IMG/VR virus record: IMGVR_UViG_2671180854_000003
Coordinates: 1 to 8,663 of that record
Reading direction: 5' to 3' (one strand)
Length of the DNA stretch: 8,663 bases
Source: a virus
Taxonomy: Duplodnaviria; Heunggongvirae; Uroviricota; Caudoviricetes
Numbering within the stretch: position 1 is the stretch's first letter; each line of letters opens with the position of its first letter. A program made the translations under genes and the position numbers. The notes under the pieces were generated by a model. It did no database searches. It had not been told where the DNA came from and saw nothing but the letters and a program-made list of their open reading frames with translations. Below are positions 1 to 8,663 of the stretch, one piece after another.

Positions 1-411
1 ATGCCTGCCCCCGTCGTCCTGATCCTTGCGGCCGGGCGTGGAGAGCGCTTTCTCGCCTCCGGGGGAAATACCCATAAGTGTATCGGCTGGCGTCAGTCCC
101 CGGAGGTTGCGCCTTATCGCTGGCCATTTGAAGAAAACGGGAGAACTTTCGACCTTGCGATTGAACCGCAGATTACGACTAATGATCTGCGTCTGATGTT
201 GAGGCTGGCTCTTGCCGGCGGAGGAATAACAATTGCCACTCAGGAAACTTTCAGGCCATATATTGAAAGCGGTAAGCTTGTATCGCTGCTTGATGACTTT
301 CTTCCACAATTTCCGGGCTTCTATCTGTATTTCCCACAGCGTCGCAATATTGCACCAAAGCTCCGCGCCCTGATTGACTACGTCAAAGAATGGCGGCAGC
401 AATTGGCTTAA
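1..411 (+). CDS. yagP: LysR-family transcriptional regulator, C-terminal effector-binding portion only (136 aa; no N-terminal HTH in window); probably a truncated gene or pseudogene
   Basis: ORF at window edge; C-terminal tail ...IAPKLRALIDYVKEW is typical of LysR-family regulators; size and position beside a tRNA-Thr fragment match my memory of the yagP locus in E. coli K-12 (not verified). Confidence 0.55.
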   Translation: MPAPVVLILAAGRGERFLASGGNTHKCIGWRQSPEVAPYRWPFEENGRTFDLAIEPQITTNDLRLMLRLALAGGGITIATQETFRPYIESGKLVSLLDDFLPQFPGFYLYFPQRRNIAPKLRALIDYVKEWRQQLA

Positions 412-537
412 ATGTCTGCACCTGCACTGCCTGATGTCAGAACAGTATTTTGATGAATTGCCAAGGTTACAATGGCACAAATACGGCACAGGAGGAAACG
501 TGGTGTATTTAAATATGGGGTAACTCTTTGATTTTAA

Positions 538-583
538 TGATGCCGATAATAGGAGTCGAACCTACGACCTTCGCATTACGAAT
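538..583 (-). pseudogene. Partial tRNA-Thr(CGU) copy: anticodon loop through acceptor 3' end, no 5' half; integration-site (att) remnant of a thrW-targeting element
   Basis: Reverse complement of 541-583 reads AATTCGTAATGCGAAGGTCGTAGGTTCGACTCCTATTATCGGCA, which matches the 3' half of E. coli tRNA-Thr(CGU) as I remember it (anticodon CGT, T-loop GGTTCGACTCC); sequence diverges completely beyond 584; the CCA end reads TCA (one mismatch). Confidence 0.75.
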
Positions 584-1023
584 TATAAGAATCCGATTCT
601 AATTCAAAGCATTACCCCATCAACACTGCGCTCACACGTCCCGCCACATCAAAACATGTAAAGCCTTGCAAGCCATTGCGAGGCCTTATGTGTCTCAGTT
701 TTGTCCCACCTTGTATTACGACTTGCATAGCCAATGAAGATAAATGTGACGACAAACGGCGCAGCAGTCTTCTTTTCTTTCATACTTTCCCACACCCGGC
801 TTGCATACCTTTCTGCCATAACTATAGTGAATGTCTGTTATGAGAGAGAGACGGAAGTCCCCCACTTTATAAGTCAGTTAATGGAGAAATTACTAGCAGA
901 CGGTGTACTTGGAACAAGTTAATGGATTATAATGATAAATTAAGCATCGTTATGATTTGAAATACTTAATTATGCTAATATTGATGGAAGCAATGAATTT
1001 TAAGACATGCATAGAGTTATAAA

Positions 1024-3834
1024 ATGATAAATTTAAATCCACTTTCTTTTTCTGAATATGACTTGAACGAAATATTGAATGCCAGTCAAGATAATAAGTT
1101 AGTTCTTTTTATTGGTGCTGGTTTTTCTAAATTCAGCGAAACGGAATTAATAAAAATACCAACCTGGAGGGAGTTAATAAATGAGCTAAAAGACGACTTA
1201 GGATTGTCTGAAGAAAATGATTATTTAAAAATAGCCCAACTTTACTTTCTTCAATACGGACAAAACTCTTATGTTAAAAAAGTCAAATCAATAATTAGAG
1301 ATTTGAAACCAAGTTTTTTTCATAAGATGCTATTTGAATTAAACCCCCACTATATAATTACAACCAACTGGGATAGTTTGCTTGAAAAAACTGCACAAGA
1401 CATAGGATTGGCTTATGATTTAGTTAGTTCTGACGTGGACCTGGCACAAAGTCATTTGGACAAGAAAATTATAAAGATGCATGGGGATTTTCGACAGAAT
1501 AATTTTGTTTTTAAAGAGGATGATTACTTACAGTACAGCCAAAATTTTCCACTTATCGAAAATTTTATAAAAGGAATATTCTCAACAAACACTGTTGTGT
1601 TTTTAGGATACTCTTATAGTGATTATGATTTAAAACAGATTGTTTCATGGGTTACAACTATATCAAAAGCAACACCAAGAAAATATTTGCTCCAGAAAAA
1701 TCATGATGCAGCCCAGGCTCTTTACTTAAGAAATCATGGGATATCCTTGTTGACACCGATGAATACTGACATTAGCTATCATGATCTTTATTCAAAATTT
1801 TTCAGTGATTTCAAGCTTGTTAAAAACCAAGATGAGTTTATAAAGAGGACCCTGATCTATACTGAGTCAAAGGTAAAAAAAATAGAAGATGACCTGAGAA
1901 TGTCTGATTTTGATAAAAATAAATTGAAGAATGATATTCAATGTATTGTAACAAAAAAAATAAATAAATATGTTGATAGCAAACTAAAAGCATTAACACA
2001 ATACAAAGTATTGCTCCCTGAGCAGATCAGTAAAAAATTAACTAATAGTACCATTGATTATGATAAGTCTGGGGTTAAACTAACCTCCCACAATAATATT
2101 TTGACGACTGATTATGACGAGTATAGCAGGAAAATAAATAGCATATACCTTAATGACATTTTGAGTAAAAATACTCACTTAAAAAAGACATTCTCATCTA
2201 TTTTGGAAAAGGCATTTATAAATACAGTTAGTTATGACTCGAAACTGTATGAGGTGATTAGTTCTTCAGAATTAGAGTCTGAGCTATACAATAAGATTTC
2301 TTTCGCTTATTCAAAGGATAATGCTGAAATACTTCTTATTAACAAGGAATATGGCAAACTTCTCGATATTCTTATTTCGAAAGTAAAGCTTCATCTTAAT
2401 GAGAGAAACTATATTCTCGCCACCATTCACATGTCTAATTTTGATTATGCTTACAGGATGTTGAAGTCGGATTTACACTGTAACGGTAAGGACATTGATG
2501 AAGATTGTAAATCAATAATGGAAAGCCATACTCCATTTGAGTTTAAAAGTAAAACAATTGATTTTCCACGGGGGGTGCAAAGTGAGCTACAAGAATTAGT
2601 AAAGATGCTTGAATTTAATGAAATATACAAAGCTTACTATCGATTTGACGTTGAATCGAAGAAGAATTTAGGGTACTCACAAATAAGAAAGAGTGGTGGA
2701 ATAGCATTTTCCAATGATGAATTTAAAACAAGAGCGAAACTGTACCCTTATGTGTATTTCATTTTAGGCAACGAAATTTTAATTGAAGAATATAAAGAGG
2801 TTAAACAATTTTTCGAATTTAATATTCTTAGTAGCCTCGAACACTATCTATGCGAAGAGATATTCTATGTTAATAGAATCGATCTATTTATGTTAATAAA
2901 ATACTGCGAGACAGAAAAACTCAAAAAATTTTTAAGTAAGGTAATAAAAGACAAAATAATAATCAGCACCAGCAAACTTGACAAAAGAGAAGTTCACCAT
3001 ATTAAGAAATATTTACTCAACTCTCTCGAAAACATATGCAACCTGATTAGGTTGAAAAATAAAAATTTTATTCATACCACTTCAATAGATCGATGGACCA
3101 ATAATTTATTGATTATATTAGGATGTGTTCCGTGGAGTTCAAACCAGTTAAAGAAAATAATAAATGGTTTGCTTCCTTTGTTAGAAGGCAGAACTAATAA
3201 CATAAATATTTATGAAAACATACATAATCTTCTAGCTGTGAATGAGTTTTTGTATCAAAAATCCCATGATGATATGTTAAAAATCCTGGATGTAATACTT
3301 ATAAAAATCAATACAGGAGAGTTAAATGGTTATGACCAGCATGTAATTAACTCCAATATCTTACGAAACATTTACATATTATCAGAGAATCATAATTACG
3401 AATACAAAAACACTGAACTATTAACATTAGCGTTAACAAAAATACAATTATTTGATGATAAGTGGAAAAGATCCATCACTAAGAGTTTATTATTGAACAT
3501 CAAAAGGATTGGCTCTCCTGAGGTCGTTGACATTATAGACAAGTTTATTAACAGTAATATTTTAAACCTACCACTGGCAACAGTAAGCGATATTATGGAA
3601 TGTTTGCATTTAGTCGCAAGCGGATGTGCCATGCCTGATCAATTTCTTGAGGTTATTAACAAATTTGTTTCTGAAAACATCCCGAATAAATTAGGCGAGT
3701 TAGATTTCATTACAGCTGGTGTAGAAAGTGATTTTCCTAACTTAATTAAAAGCCTTATAAAGGATAGAGGCTTTGTTGAATTTCAAGACACATTGGACAT
3801 ATTCAATGAACGAATGCAATCTCTAAAAAAATAA
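1024..3834 (+). CDS. SIR2-like (sirtuin/NADase-type) domain protein, 936 aa: N-terminal SIR2_2-like domain (~aa 1-300) plus ~630-aa C-terminal region of unknown function; candidate single-gene anti-phage defence protein (DSR-like architecture)
   Basis: Long uninterrupted ORF; N-terminal motifs LVLFIGAGFS (aa 26-35), ITTNWD (Asn115, nt 1366-1368), KMHGD (His153, nt 1480-1482), VVFLGYSYSD match the layout of SIR2-type NAD-binding/catalytic motifs in ThsA/DSR-type defence proteins; no Walker A P-loop seen; gene is far more AT-rich (~25-33% GC on sampled lines) than flanks (~50-55%). Confidence 0.8.
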   Translation: MINLNPLSFSEYDLNEILNASQDNKLVLFIGAGFSKFSETELIKIPTWRELINELKDDLGLSEENDYLKIAQLYFLQYGQNSYVKKVKSIIRDLKPSFFHKMLFELNPHYIITTNWDSLLEKTAQDIGLAYDLVSSDVDLAQSHLDKKIIKMHGDFRQNNFVFKEDDYLQYSQNFPLIENFIKGIFSTNTVVFLGYSYSDYDLKQIVSWVTTISKATPRKYLLQKNHDAAQALYLRNHGISLLTPMNTDISYHDLYSKFFSDFKLVKNQDEFIKRTLIYTESKVKKIEDDLRMSDFDKNKLKNDIQCIVTKKINKYVDSKLKALTQYKVLLPEQISKKLTNSTIDYDKSGVKLTSHNNILTTDYDEYSRKINSIYLNDILSKNTHLKKTFSSILEKAFINTVSYDSKLYEVISSSELESELYNKISFAYSKDNAEILLINKEYGKLLDILISKVKLHLNERNYILATIHMSNFDYAYRMLKSDLHCNGKDIDEDCKSIMESHTPFEFKSKTIDFPRGVQSELQELVKMLEFNEIYKAYYRFDVESKKNLGYSQIRKSGGIAFSNDEFKTRAKLYPYVYFILGNEILIEEYKEVKQFFEFNILSSLEHYLCEEIFYVNRIDLFMLIKYCETEKLKKFLSKVIKDKIIISTSKLDKREVHHIKKYLLNSLENICNLIRLKNKNFIHTTSIDRWTNNLLIILGCVPWSSNQLKKIINGLLPLLEGRTNNINIYENIHNLLAVNEFLYQKSHDDMLKILDVILIKINTGELNGYDQHVINSNILRNIYILSENHNYEYKNTELLTLALTKIQLFDDKWKRSITKSLLLNIKRIGSPEVVDIIDKFINSNILNLPLATVSDIMECLHLVASGCAMPDQFLEVINKFVSENIPNKLGELDFITAGVESDFPNLIKSLIKDRGFVEFQDTLDIFNERMQSLKK

Positions 3835-3845
3835 AGCCACTGAGA

Positions 3846-3892
3846 TAGGGCTGCTCTCTGTCAATTACCGCTCTTGGCACATAGCAGCCCTA
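3846..3892. repeat. Perfect 10-bp inverted repeat (TAGGGCTGCT ... AGCAGCCCTA) with 27-nt spacer, in the gap between the convergent SIR2 gene and pin
   Basis: Read directly: 3846-3855 is the reverse complement of 3883-3892. Confidence 0.6.
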
Positions 3893-4054
3893 GAAATGGT
3901 GACGTATAGTCATAGATGGTCGGTGACAGGAGATGCAAATCATCTCATACAAAAATACGTAAAATCAATAACGGCTAGAAATTATTCAACACTCGCACTA
4001 TCGACATTTCACCAGCTAACCGTAGCACGTTCTTGCATACGACGTGCTACGGTT

Positions 4055-4609
4055 TCATTTATCTCCAACCGGAAACTTCTTATACAGTGTCGATATACCA
4101 ACATCATAGATGATCGCCACCTTCTGGCGAGGAACGCCTGATGCAATTAATCGCCCGGCCTGCGCCCATTGTTCTGGTGTAAGTTTGGGACGACGTCCCC
4201 CAATTCGTCCCTGTGCGCGAGCAGCTTCCAGTCCAGCTTTTGTTCGTTCAACAATCAGTTCTCGTTCCATTTCAGCCAGGGCACCCATCACATGAAAGAA
4301 AAAACGCCCCATCGGTGTGCTGGTATCAATAGCATCCGTCAGGCTGCGAAAATTAACGCCACGTTCGCGCAACTCCTCAACCAGAATGACCAGATGCCGC
4401 ATACTACGCCCCAGCCGATCCAGTTTCCAGACCACCAGAGTGTCACCTGCCGATAATGTCCTGAGCAGTTTTTTCAGTCCCGGTCTTTCGGACTTCGTAC
4501 CGCTTATCTTGTCTTCAAAAATCAGTTCACATCCTACACAGTTCAACGCATTACGTTGTAGATCGGTGTTCTGGTCATTTGTTGATACGCGAACATAGCC
4601 AATAAGCAT
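4055..4609 (-). CDS. pin: Serine-recombinase DNA invertase, Pin/Gin/Hin/Cin family (184 aa from ATG at 4609)
   Basis: Translation MLIGYVRVSTNDQNTDLQRNAL...VVWKLDRLGRSM...GRIGGRRPKL is near-identical in pattern to Pin/Gin invertases (catalytic Ser in YVRVST motif, C-terminal HTH); the ORF-track start at 4645 adds a 12-aa extension that homologues lack. Confidence 0.9.
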   Translation of the reverse strand: MLIGYVRVSTNDQNTDLQRNALNCVGCELIFEDKISGTKSERPGLKKLLRTLSAGDTLVVWKLDRLGRSMRHLVILVEELRERGVNFRSLTDAIDTSTPMGRFFFHVMGALAEMERELIVERTKAGLEAARAQGRIGGRRPKLTPEQWAQAGRLIASGVPRQKVAIIYDVGISTLYKKFPVGDK

Positions 4610-4635
4610 GGTAGATCCCCCAGGTAAAAGCAGGA

Positions 4636-4971
4636 ATGATGCCATTTGCTCGTTATTTCTGCATTTTCATAAACCTTGGTTTTGGAGAAGGTGCTAACTG
4701 GGTTATGTTACCTGGAGGAATGATAATTCAGCGTGTTTATCTTGGATTTCCTGTCGGCACCAATGTAAGACACATAACTTTCCCCCGGTCGTTTACAACA
4801 ACGAACTATTCCATCTCAATTAACTGGAATGATATCGGTACTGTAACAACTGAAACACAATCGCCAGCAAATGTGGCGGTTGTTCATCAAACAAAATCAT
4901 TAACAGGGGCCAGCATCTGGCAGGCAGGTCCCGGGGGATTTAATGTGGACATTATAGCGGTGGGGTATTGA
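4636..4971 (+). CDS. Alternative tail-fibre C-terminal cassette (Sv'-type), currently in the silent orientation; would be fused to the constant stf 5' part after inversion
   Basis: ORF encodes NLGFGEGA across the crossover site, mirroring ENLGLGEGA at the second site inside stf; followed directly by a tfa gene; the ATG at 4636 lies outside the invertible segment and is probably not a real start. Confidence 0.5.
   Translation: MMPFARYFCIFINLGFGEGANWVMLPGGMIIQRVYLGFPVGTNVRHITFPRSFTTTNYSISINWNDIGTVTTETQSPANVAVVHQTKSLTGASIWQAGPGGFNVDIIAVGY
4664..4689. other. Invertase crossover site (gix/hix-like), invertase-proximal: TTTTCATAAACCTTGGTTTTGGAGAA
   Basis: Quasi-palindromic 26-mer with AAACC-NN-GGTTT core resembling Hin/Gin recombination sites; lies ~55 bp upstream of the pin start. 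Confidence 0.7.
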
Positions 4972-4972
4972 T

Positions 4973-5401
4973 ATGTACGTATGGAGCGCTAAAGCAAATG
5001 GCTTTTTCCCCATATCGGAGAAAGAAAAATTTGAGGCATCAGGTCTGTGGCCTGATGATGGTGTAATAGTCAGTGAGGAAGAACATAAGAAGTTATTTAT
5101 GGATATTCCACCAGGAAAACAGATTGGAACACTGAATGGAAAACCAGCACTGATAGATATTCCTCAGCCGACCAAAAAGGAATTAATAGCTATTGCTGAA
5201 GTTAAAAAATCCCAATTACGGGAAAAAGCTGACAGTGAAATATCCTGGCGTCAGGATGCTGTTGATGCTGATATCGCAACTGATGAAGAAGCTACAACTC
5301 TCACCCAATGGAAGAAATACCGTGTGCTGCTGATGCGTGTTGATACGTCAACAGCACCCGATATTGAATGGCCTACGCCTCCGGCAGTTCAGGCCAGATG
5401 A
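4973..5401 (+). CDS. Tail fibre assembly protein (Tfa/Mu U-like), partner of the alternative cassette
   Basis: 142-aa ORF with C-terminal motif KKYRVLLMRVDTSTAPDIEWPTPP typical of phage tail-fibre assembly chaperones. Confidence 0.8.
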   Translation: MYVWSAKANGFFPISEKEKFEASGLWPDDGVIVSEEEHKKLFMDIPPGKQIGTLNGKPALIDIPQPTKKELIAIAEVKKSQLREKADSEISWRQDAVDADIATDEEATTLTQWKKYRVLLMRVDTSTAPDIEWPTPPAVQAR

Positions 5402-5966
5402 TATCCGGCGCGGTGCTGGTATCTGTTGCCGTCACCGCGTCAATGTAATCCAGCACGGCGTTAAGTCGGGTTGTTTCTGCCTGAGTCAGTTTCCGTCCGG
5501 CCTGTAATTTCAGCTGAATCAGACTAATGGAAGCCATTGCTGCATCAATCAGTGACTGGCGCTGTGCTTCTGCCGCGTCTACTGCGGCACTGTGTTGTGC
5601 CTCAGTGTCTGTCACCCATTTCTCACCATCCCATTTATCGTATGGCGTTAACGGTGAAATCGTGACATAACCGTCTTTGATGGCACCGATATAATCCACT
5701 GTAACAGCTGCGCCATTTTCGATTGAGTAAACAGTCTCATTGCGATGGTCTTCTTCATGGCGCCATCCCTTACCTGTAAATACTGCCACTCTTCCCGGAA
5801 TGTTTTCGCCAGGGTCAATACCAGTGGAACAGGCGGGCATACTTACGCCAGTATTAATATATTCATCAGACCAGCCCGTATACTCAGATGTTTCAGCATC
5901 ATAATAAAAACAACGCATATCGCCCGGCACTGTAGCCAGCCCATTTTCATCAAAAACAGGTTTCAT
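5373..5966 (-). CDS. Tail fibre assembly protein (Tfa/Mu U-like), partner of the currently expressed tail-fibre variant
   Basis: 197-aa ORF with C-terminal motif DTSTAPDIIWPELPEA; start overlaps stf stop (TAATG at 5964-5968). Confidence 0.85.
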   Translation of the reverse strand: MKPVFDENGLATVPGDMRCFYYDAETSEYTGWSDEYINTGVSMPACSTGIDPGENIPGRVAVFTGKGWRHEEDHRNETVYSIENGAAVTVDYIGAIKDGYVTISPLTPYDKWDGEKWVTDTEAQHSAAVDAAEAQRQSLIDAAMASISLIQLKLQAGRKLTQAETTRLNAVLDYIDAVTATDTSTAPDIIWPELPEA

Positions 5967-6712
5967 TATTTAGCCCTCACCAGAAAGTTAAATGCAATAT
6001 TTCGCGGTCTGACAGCAACAAAATTCACACCATCACCCACAGAGTTACTGGTGAAATTAAATCGTGAAAATCCTGGCTGATTTCCGGCGATGCCATCATG
6101 AAAGTTAATTGCGTGTCCCGCACCTTCGCCTATATTCCCGGCAAACTGAGAAAAGTTTGTAGCTGCCTGCCAGCTTAATAATTCGCGACCACCGTCTGCA
6201 CCTCGCCCGTCATCCCAGATACGAATGAAATCACCGCGGGCTTCAGGTAATACCAGCGAAGGAAACACTTTCGCCAGCACAGGATAATCAGTGGCAGAGA
6301 ATTTCGCGCCGTTGAACTTCAAAAACACCATACTGGACCAGCTGTCGATTACAGTATTTGGCATTGCAGCGGACGGCCAGAAGAACGGAACGCCAATAGC
6401 TGGAGCACCTTCTCCCAAACCAAGGTTTTCGAGAGCTGTTTTCACCGTGCCATCCGATTTGATATCGCCAAACGGATTCTTGCGGCTTAACAGCAGCGCA
6501 CGAAGCGCGGTAAGCAGCTGGTCGTGCCTCTCCTTCTCCAGGCTGGCACCGGATGCCTCCACCACGCTACAAAGCTCTTCCTGCAACATGTCAAAGTAGT
6601 CATCATCCAGATCGGTGGCAGGCGTGCCGGTCTGGGGGTTGCCACGGGTAAAACCGTTCTTACCCGCGCCGAACTTATCCTTCTGCGCGGTTTTCGTGTC
6701 TATGCGATGCAT
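5966..6712 (-). CDS. Short side tail fibre protein (248 aa): constant N-terminal part (outside the invertible segment) fused to variable C-terminal part (inside it)
   Basis: N-terminus [20 protein letters not shown]... and glycine-rich body typical of e14/Mu-type tail fibres; crossover site lies inside the ORF at aa ~93-101; followed by a translationally coupled tfa. Confidence 0.85.
6410..6435. other. Invertase crossover site (gix/hix-like), distal, inside stf: TTCTCCCAAACCAAGGTTTTCGAGAG
   Basis: Its reverse complement matches the 4664-4689 site at 21 of 26 positions; central dinucleotide AA versus TT shows the two sites are in inverted orientation. Confidence 0.7.
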
Positions 6713-6715
6713 GGA

Positions 6716-7300
6716 TTACTCCGGATATTTAAAAATTACGTAGGTATGAGACGGACAGAGTTTGTTAAGCACACATTCGACAACGGTATCGCCCCAGATA
6801 CGCAGTGCGGAATCACAGGGATCGCCACATGTCATCCAGGTGGTGTTTGTGGCGGCTGGCATGTTGACCTGCCAGTAATACCGCCATTCCGGCGCATTCA
6901 CCGCGTCAGTACAGGCCGATGAGCAGGTGAACGTGCTTTTGTCGTATCGCGTGATGGTAGCGTCTGGTCTGCCCAGGGCAGCAAGCTGTGCAAGATAAAA
7001 ATTCTCGTTGATGCCGCCCGCCAGGTTAACCTTCGCATCCAGCCGTTGCTGACGCTGGCGAAGGGTCTGTGTCCCTGCGGGAATACATTCATCCGGCAGA
7101 CCGCACAGACGCTCCCAGCGGTTTATCAGTTCGGTGGTGGTGCGCGGATCCAGCTCCCGCATCAGGGCATCCGCACGCTGATGAACGCGGGTTAATGACG
7201 GTGCCGCACCGGCAATCGACGGATCGCTGGCTGACCACGCCGGACCGGGGGGCAACAGTGCCGACAACAGACGGATGTAATCATCGTTTGTCACGTCCAT
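6716..7300 (-). CDS. ymfQ: Phage tail/baseplate protein, YmfQ/DUF2313 family (Mu gp48 / P2 gpI-like position), 194 aa
   Basis: 194-aa ORF immediately upstream of stf with a 3-nt gap (translational coupling); sequence beginning [22 protein letters not shown] recalls the e14 YmfQ family (from memory). Confidence 0.7.
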
Positions 7301-7449
7301 GAAATCGTCCCCAGTACCGCCAGTTCATTTTTTGCAATGGAGATATTGTCTGCCGGTGCAAGCAACTGATGGCTGTATTCCCCGTTCGCACCGGAAATCG
7401 CCTCACTGATACGCGATACCTTCAGTTCTCCCTGCGGATATGGGCAGCT
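7291..7449 (-). pseudogene. Probable 3' remnant (~52 codons) of a baseplate-J-like tail gene, truncated at its 5' side
   Basis: Open frame on the minus strand from the Rz stop down to a TGA at 7291-7293 that overlaps the ymfQ start by 8 nt (typical tail-operon overlap); no start codon or 5' part present; identity as J-like is inferred from gene order only. Confidence 0.3.
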
Positions 7450-7911
7450 CTATCTGCACTGCTCATTAATATACTTCTGGGTTCCTTCCAGTTGTTTTTG
7501 CATAGTGATCAGCCTCTCTCTGAGGGTGAAATAATCCCGTTCAGCGGTGTCTGCCAGTCGGGGGGAGGCTGCATTATCCACGCCGGAGGCGGTGGTGGCT
7601 TCACGCACTGACTGACAGACTGCTTTGATGTGCAACCGACGACGACCAGCGGCAACATCATCACGCAGAGCATCATTTTCAGCTTTCGCATCAGCTAACT
7701 CCTTCGTGTATTTTGCATCGAGCGCAGCAACATCACGCTGACGCATCTGCATGTCAGTAATTGCCGCGTTCGCCAGCTTCAGTTCTTTGGCATTTTTGTC
7801 GCGCTGGGCTTTATAGGTAATGGCGTTATCACGGTAATGATTAACAGCCCATGACAGGCAGACGATGATGCAGATAACCAGAGCGGAGATAATCGCGGTT
7901 ACTCTGTTCAT
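7450..7911 (-). CDS. Rz: Rz-type i-spanin (153 aa from ATG at 7911)
   Basis: Translation [41 protein letters not shown]... closely matches lambda Rz as I recall it; start overlaps the endolysin stop (ATGA). Confidence 0.9.
7509..7691 (-). CDS. Rz1: Rz1-type o-spanin lipoprotein (60 aa), embedded in the +1 frame inside Rz
   Basis: Translation [26 protein letters not shown]...PPPPPAW... with lipobox (VVGC) and proline-rich region, as in lambda Rz1. Confidence 0.85.
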
Positions 7912-8405
7912 TGCTGACCCCACAAACAGATTTCACGCTCAATCTCACGACGAGTCATGAGACCTTTCCATTGCTTACCGCCAGCATATGTCCAGCGACG
8001 TAACTGATCACATGCGCCTTTGATATCGCCCTGGTTTATTTTGCGAAGAAGCGTCGATGTTCTGAAATTGCCAGCACCCACGTTGTAAACGAATGAGTAA
8101 AGAGCGCCGCGCGTTGTTTCCGGTATATCGACTTCGATGTATGGGTTAATTTGTCTGGCGACAGTGGCAAGGTCTTTATTCAAGAGTGCTTTGCATTCTG
8201 CTTTGGTATACGTTTTACCGAGCATGATGTCTTTTCCTGTATGCCCGTGACATACGGTCCATACACCAACAATATCTTTGTATGGTATGTAGCTGACACC
8301 TTCCAGACCATCGTTACCACTTGGGCCAGTGATTAACACTGATGCTATAGCAATTGCTCCGCCACCAATAGCAGCAGCAACGGCTTTTCGTAATGATGGA
8401 GGCAT
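7908..8405 (-). CDS. SAR-type endolysin (phage lysozyme, P21 R / DLP12 RrrD-like), 165 aa
   Basis: N-terminal signal-anchor-release segment [30 protein letters not shown] followed by lysozyme body; near-identical to P21-type endolysins from memory; start overlaps holin stop (TAATG). Confidence 0.9.
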
Positions 8406-8540
8406 TATTCACCTCTCGCAGCCTTGCGCTTATCTTCTTTAATCTTGAAATAAAGGTTTGTCAGGTACGTCAGCAGGCCAAATACCAGGCTACCCAGCAC
8501 ACCTATTGCTGCCCACTGTGAGGGCGTGACTTTATCGAGC
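8405..8540 (-). pseudogene. Pinholin (S21/EssD-like) 3' remnant; N-terminal ~25 codons replaced by an IS insertion
   Basis: Minus-strand translation ...[44 protein letters not shown] matches the C-terminal two-thirds of P21-type pinholins; similarity ends abruptly at ~8540 where an IS terminal sequence begins. Confidence 0.75.
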
Positions 8541-8663
8541 TGAACCGCCCCGGGAATCCTGGAGACTAAACTTCCTGAGAAAGAGGTAAACAGGATGACT
8601 AAAAATACTCGTTTTTCCCCCGAAGTCCGTCAACGGGCAGTCCGTATGGTTCTGGAAAGTCAG
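8541..8663 (+). mobile_element. Left end of an IS3-family insertion sequence (IS629/IS1203-like), continuing beyond the window
   Basis: Terminal sequence TGAACCGCCCCGGG... starts exactly where holin similarity stops; transposase OrfA start follows 54 bp downstream. Confidence 0.7.
8595..8663 (+). CDS. IS3-family transposase OrfA, N-terminal 23 codons (partial, runs off window)
   Basis: Translation [23 protein letters not shown] matches the N-terminus of IS629/IS1203-type OrfA as I recall it; AGGTAAACAGG Shine-Dalgarno-like sequence upstream. Confidence 0.75.

Follow-up and report, generated by a model that had tools for sequence, protein, structure and literature searches.

The window, i.e. 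the whole stretch of 8,663 nucleotides analysed here, is identical to the last 8663 bp of draft contig CXZD01000007.1 (GCA_001277455.1). Bases 1-7440 match a prophage that adjoins paoD and a truncated LysR gene and that contains lambdoid early genes, an HK97-type head and a Mu-like contractile tail. A complete version of this prophage is present in the ETEC strain UMNK88. Only the 3′ part of the LysR-family regulator gene is found in the window (1-411, + strand), directly after paoD, and the corresponding gene in relatives is annotated as 'missing N-terminus'. This gene is probably the integration target of this prophage family. Alignment with UMNK88 and with E. coli G4/9 identified a deletion junction at 7437-7440 (context 7301-7450) containing the 4-bp microhomology GATA, at which the 3′ end of the baseplate-J gene is fused to DNA just downstream of Rz. 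The baseplate, tail, head, terminase, HNH and bor/iss genes were removed by this deletion, which spans at least 18 kb; the complete UMNK88 prophage contains more than 18 kb between the same points. The 7440 junction was found in none of 5,426 complete E. coli genomes, nor in a set comprising one genome per species. Irrespective of the IS629 sequence described below, this prophage was already, or later turned into, a non-viable remnant.

Two other features of the remnant were observed. A single gene for a 936-aa SIR2-domain protein (1024-3834, + strand) lies between the prophage end and pin. Residues 15-230 of this protein match the SIR2 domain of the Thoeris defence protein ThsA (PADLOC, E = 5e-29), and the roughly 700 C-terminal residues are uncharacterised. 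As related prophages carry GIY-YIG/AraC, RES or TrlF-like cargo in the same slot, this position looks like a defence-gene swap site. The Pin-type invertase gene (4055-4645, - strand) adjoins a 1.7-kb segment bounded by 25-nt inverted repeats that are 96% complementary (4671-4695 and 6404-6428). It contains sequences for alternative C-termini of the tail fibre as well as genes for tail-fibre assembly, and represents a host-range switch of the e14/Mu style that was kept although the prophage lacks a tail. A Logan contig of run ERR124655 stops at about window position 4682, within the left repeat, which would fit mixed orientations of the segment in the sequenced population.

The lysis genes are encoded on the - strand. 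The rrrD gene (7908-8405) specifies an intact 165-aa SAR (signal-arrest-release) endolysin that differs from the common allele by two substitutions. Its lysozyme domain matches PF00959 with 154 bits, and residues 1-165 align end to end with structures 4zpu (RrrD) and 3hde (phage 21 lysozyme) at E ~1e-111. The protein has the features of a SAR endolysin of the R21/RrrD type (GH24), including a weakly hydrophobic, Gly/Ala-rich N-terminal SAR segment as well as E35, D44 and T50, which we take to be the catalytic residues. The inner-membrane spanin gene rzpD (Rz, 7450-7911, 153 aa) is also intact, matching PF03245 with 183 bits over profile positions 1-126 of 126, and differs from its relatives by one or two substitutions. 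The outer-membrane lipoprotein spanin gene rzoD (Rz1, 7509-7691, 60 aa) is intact as well; the PF06085 match (72 bits) spans profile positions 1-40 of 41. Rz1 is embedded in the +1 frame of Rz and contains Cys20 after LVVVG; together with the N-terminal TMD of Rz, this arrangement fits the two-component spanin layout. The first-pass annotation had described the SAR endolysin and Rz/Rz1 as intact, and both the Pfam matches and the alignments confirmed that these genes are full length. In ten other loci with an identical RrrD, a 71-aa holin gene lies directly upstream of the endolysin gene (10/10), the gene order of intact loci being Q - porin - S - R - Rz. This RrrD is a very common protein, and the loci sharing it are otherwise unrelated to the one in the window.

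IS629 and the essD remnant

The sequence immediately upstream of rrrD is the 3′ remnant of an S21/DLP12-type pinholin gene, here called essD′ (8405-8540, - strand), which was identified by translation, alignment and a match to PF04971, 'Bacteriophage P21 holin S'. This match scored 74.9 bits against a cut-off of 26 and covers only profile positions 24-63 of 64. When 8539-8405 on the - strand is translated, the product is the same as EssD of E. coli G4/9 (71 aa) from residue 28 to residue 71, and these residues are identical in 9 of 10 further loci sharing the same endolysin. The remnant holds codons 28-71 of 71 with the stop codon, plus the last base of codon 27. The essD TAA (8407-8405) and the rrrD ATG (8405-8403) overlap as TAATG, the same layout as in the ten intact loci, and the rrrD ribosome-binding site is retained within the essD 3′ end. 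Gene families, gene order and the stop/start overlap are also those of the phage 21 genes for S21 71/S21 68 and R21 and of the E. coli K-12 DLP12 genes essD-rrrD-rzpD-rzoD.

Base-level alignment with intact essD was perfect through 8540 and unrelated from 8541, placing the break between codons 27 and 28. The remainder of the window (8541-8663, + strand) is the left end of IS629, an IS3-family element, and consists of the left inverted repeat, a leader and orfA up to codon 23. This segment is identical at 122 of 123 positions to elements annotated as 'insertion sequence: IS3 family IS629'; the comparison covers 123 of 1310 bp. Position 8541 aligns with the first base of the 1310-bp element annotated in LC567828.1 and is therefore base 1 of IS629. 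The left inverted repeat TGAACCGCCCCGGGAATCCTGGAGA (8541-8565, + strand) starts with 5′-TG and equals the IS629 left end in LC567828.1. The right end of that element (...CCAGGAAACCCGGGGCGGTTCA) bears an inverted copy of the same repeat with 23 of 25 matching positions. The first-pass annotation had placed the end of holin similarity at about 8540, where an IS3-family element was said to begin; both points proved correct, and the boundary is exact. The window contains only 123 bp of IS629 because its source contig ends there, as is typical of short-read assemblies at repeats. The same 123 bp are also 100% identical to positions 1918-2040 of AF017626.1, where they lie under a feature annotated as int; this 2.6-kb 'Escherichia phage 21' int-region record thus appears to contain an IS629 end.

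The start of orfA (8595-8663, + strand) was recognized by translation and by the presence of LC567828.1 orfA at the same offset. The match of this fragment to HTH_Tnp_1 was weak (E = 9e-4) and, with just 23 residues available, did not reach the Pfam cut-off. In IS3-family elements orfA and orfB are joined by a programmed -1 frameshift to give a DDE transposase; the window extends to codon 23 of orfA. OrfA had been described as reading outward on the strand opposite to the lysis genes. The strand was assigned correctly, whereas the direction was not: orfA runs from the left inverted repeat into IS629 and is divergent from the lysis genes. Transposase transcription therefore cannot enter the lysis genes.

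The part of essD that is missing from the window includes its ribosome-binding site, its dual start (codons M1 and M4) and all of the weakly hydrophobic TMD1, in agreement with the earlier claim that the start codon and the first transmembrane region are missing. The loop between TMD1 and TMD2, TMD2 itself and the charged C-terminal tail are kept, and the hydropathy profile agrees with this assignment. In S21 the aromatic patch YWFLQW ends TMD1 and the loop to TMD2 reads LDQVSPSQ (10.1101/2021.04.20.440580); the EssD counterpart is YWFLQL followed by LDKVTPSQ. With codons 1-27 gone, the features characteristic of an S21-type pinholin (a class II holin), i.e. paired transmembrane domains, a SAR-like TMD1 and a dual start, are absent here. 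The missing 5′ part of essD (5′ 81 bp, AGCAGCTGTAAAAACC / AGCAGCTGTAAAAACCAGTAACCGG) was not found elsewhere in the window, and comparison with uninterrupted holins, which had been proposed as a check, identified no complete holin ORF with its own start in the window.

A search for a rescue start found no ATG, GTG or TTG in frame before the GTG at 8500, which would yield a peptide of only 31 aa without the start of TMD2. The frame upstream of essD′ is closed by a stop codon at 8632-8630, and no chimeric ORF leading from the IS629 end into essD′ was found in the window. Since none of the in-frame starts would produce a peptide with TMD2 complete, essD is a pseudogene here and not a functional pinholin gene. 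The remnant corresponds to residues 25-68 of S21 68 and thus falls between the engineered truncations 24-68 and 30-68, which still form transient pores; TMD2 of S21 is regarded as necessary and sufficient (10.1101/2021.04.20.440580). On these grounds the essD′ product could be active if it were translated. Unlike the engineered S21 TMD1 deletions, however, essD′ has neither a start codon nor a ribosome-binding site, and for this reason no product is expected.

Over its remaining 136 bp, essD is 100% identical to holin genes in deposited phage genomes, and the IS629 event in essD therefore looks recent. Taken together, we consider it very probable that an IS629 element sits in essD between codons 27 and 28, with its left end toward the 3′ part of the gene, and disrupts the pinholin gene of a prophage remnant.

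Probable consequences for the lysis genes

In intact loci the Q-dependent late promoter sits upstream of the holin gene. An IS629 element within essD would separate rrrD-Rz-Rz1 from this promoter by at least 1.3 kb, and we infer that late transcription into rrrD has been lost. The disruption of essD would also take away the membrane-depolarising, lethal trigger of the cassette. SAR endolysins are exported by the Sec system and are released slowly when no pinholin is present. Any RrrD still made would thus be released slowly and with no trigger, and lysis would be delayed and untimed.

The first-pass annotation proposed that the element is a possible source of an outward-reading promoter and that the locus fits domestication of a cryptic prophage. 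According to this explanation, IS629 would drive rrrD-Rz-Rz1 and the host would use the holin-less SAR endolysin, for example for cell-wall turnover or vesicle control, as suggested for the DLP12 lysis operon of K-12. The intact state of rrrD, Rz and Rz1 and the retained rrrD ribosome-binding site are compatible with such a use, and in K-12 an effect of the DLP12 lysis operon on the production of outer-membrane vesicles has been reported and the operon has been termed domesticated (PMC7918800). However, the effects reported for K-12 concern the complete operon with its holin, and as the event looks recent, the intact state of the downstream genes can be explained without selection. The divergent orientation of orfA also argues against this explanation. 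Moreover, when the - strand of 8541-8663 and a complete IS629 were scanned for promoter consensus sequences, neither showed a promoter-like site, although this result is weak negative evidence since the scan was a crude consensus match. IS3-family elements such as IS911, IS2 and IS3 are known to have an outward-facing -35 element in the right end, not in the left end. The proposed promoter source is accordingly not supported, and we give domestication very little credence. The part of the earlier proposal that stood is that this is a decaying prophage; no selected use of the endolysin is evident.

The first-pass annotation also described the endolysin as uncoupled from its holin. Plain degradation is the simpler explanation, as at least 18 kb of virion genes were also lost from this prophage. 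We conclude that the net effect is a further step in the grounding of a dead prophage and not a new regulatory arrangement, i.e. that the locus represents routine IS-driven prophage decay in which domestication is not demonstrated.

The disruption of a prophage gene by IS629 is a well-documented kind of event. In E. coli O157:H7, 62% of IS629 copies are located in prophages or prophage-like elements (PMC3271280). The case described here resembles the IS629/IS1203 insertions in lambdoid prophages of O157:H7 and STEC in both the element and the kind of target, a prophage gene. It adds to the record a further gene that IS629 has inactivated within a degraded E. coli prophage, and has little significance alone. 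It also serves as a caution, in that contig ends inside IS copies conceal half of the event.

Insertion or deletion at the junction

As the contig ends inside IS629, the conclusion that this was a simple insertion is an inference from other genomes. We searched complete E. coli genomes with the holin-IS junction in both orientations. Strain CFSAN027350 contains a simple insertion at the exact phosphodiester of the window, in the same orientation and with an AGC duplication; the element is an IS1203-type isoform, the holin allele is 92% identical, and the 5′ part of the holin gene lies on the far side of the IS. O157:H7 strain F6667 contains a simple insertion at the same phosphodiester in the opposite orientation, again with an AGC duplication and with the 5′ part of the holin gene on the far side. 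The 3-bp duplication can be seen at this site in these relatives, whereas the window contains only the left 123 bp of the element. IS629 has been described as generating target duplications of 3-4 bp (PMC3271280). By analogy, IS629 would have entered essD in the window by the copy-out/paste-in transposition usual for the IS3 family, duplicating 3 bp of the target (AGC).

An IS-associated deletion could have produced the same visible junction. In this case the 5′ part of essD and the upstream prophage DNA (porin, Q and early region) would have been removed, either after insertion or by recombination between two IS629 copies, and the IS would border unrelated DNA. A precedent is found in about 17-20 O145:H28 genomes, in which IS629 lies in essD 27 bp nearer the stop codon without a target duplication. 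The other IS629 flank in these genomes is a truncated integrase gene next to tRNA-Arg, indicating a deletion. PGAP annotates the O145:H28 essD as 'missing N-terminus' beside an IS3 family transposase, and equivalent holin fragments beside IS3-family transposases are annotated by PGAP in other genomes. The O145:H28 essD::IS629 loci (RM9872, RM13514) share with the window the gene, the IS and its orientation, and rrrD and rzpD are intact in both. They differ in the breakpoint 27 bp closer to the stop codon, in the lack of a duplication, in the large deletion and in the chromosomal locus, which is argU in O145:H28 and pao/LysR in the window. Two other results are consistent with a deletion: the same prophage has already undergone one large deletion, and in O157 genomes matching duplications were present at only 21 of 47 copies of IS629 (PMC3271280). 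Nevertheless, at the exact site of the window, both genomes in which the two sides of the element are visible (2/2) have a simple insertion with AGC. We consider the deletion the less likely alternative and, on the basis of this comparison, somewhat favour a simple insertion in the strain from which the window derives.

It was also conceivable that the holin-IS junction is a chimeric contig end made by the repeat, since no more than 123 bp separate the junction from the end of the contig, which belongs to a short-read draft assembly. Past a true junction, such contigs normally extend one k-mer length into the repeat. The break coincides exactly with base 1 of IS629, and the homologous junction is present in finished genomes. 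An assembly artefact is thus exceedingly improbable.

Recurrent IS629/IS1203 insertions in S21-type holin genes

The search of complete E. coli genomes identified five further types of IS629/IS1203 junction in S21-type holin genes. Together with the window there are six types, all within 47 bp. Three of the six are located at the identical base, with AGC in both cases in which two flanks are visible. Relative to this base, the junction lies at +13 bp with an ACC duplication in an O157:H7 clade of eight genomes, at +20 bp with a TCC duplication in UTME-6 and at -27 bp in O145:H28. The IS copies within the holin genes occupy positions 3624-4933 (L007), 2597-3906 (L011, F6667), 2610-3919 (L012), 3629-4938 (L008) and 4078-5387 (L001) of the respective loci. 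Two other candidates, MDR_56 and O157:H7 F3113, were rejected as the IS is located upstream of an intact holin gene in each.

Flanking sequences of the recurrent junctions differ to within 4 bp of the IS, and the isoforms of the element are not the same either; the window and CFSAN027350, for example, are identical at 119 of 123 positions. These differences indicate that the junctions represent at least six independent events and not one event spread by recombination. The junction exactly as it occurs in the window, within this essD allele, was found in 0 of 5,426 complete E. coli genomes, and a scan of one genome per species did not identify the exact holin-IS junction. No holin::IS629 junction in either orientation was present in deposited phage genomes, and a literature search for IS629/IS1203 together with holin returned no description of such insertions.

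These data suggest that the stretch of about 50 bp encoding the end of TMD1 and the loop may be a preferred target of IS629/IS1203, a tentative reading to which we assign somewhat less than an even chance and which we regard as a lead and not as a result. Since the holin gene would be inactivated by an insertion at any position, selection for holin loss cannot account for the clustering, which would have to result from the sequence or structure of the local DNA, e.g. the GCAGCTGC palindrome or the nearby IR-like GTAACCGG motif. According to an earlier description, IS629 has no sequence-specific target (PMC3271280). If the hot spot is real, IS629 would be a recurrent, semi-targeted means of disarming lysis in lambdoid prophages. 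A target preference would imply a repeatable loss of the lethal lysis trigger in STEC and related E. coli, bearing on prophage grounding and, where the prophage is Stx-like, on the release of phage and toxin. The apparent pinholin hot spot is the only part of this analysis that might repay further work.

A further observation concerns F6667, in which PGAP calls a 63-aa 'class II holin family protein' (L011 2461-2652) that starts inside the right end of the IS. This ORF continues into the loop, TMD2 and the tail, and is a candidate for a chimeric pinholin lacking TMD1. The IS end beside it is the one that contains an outward -35 element in IS3-family elements.
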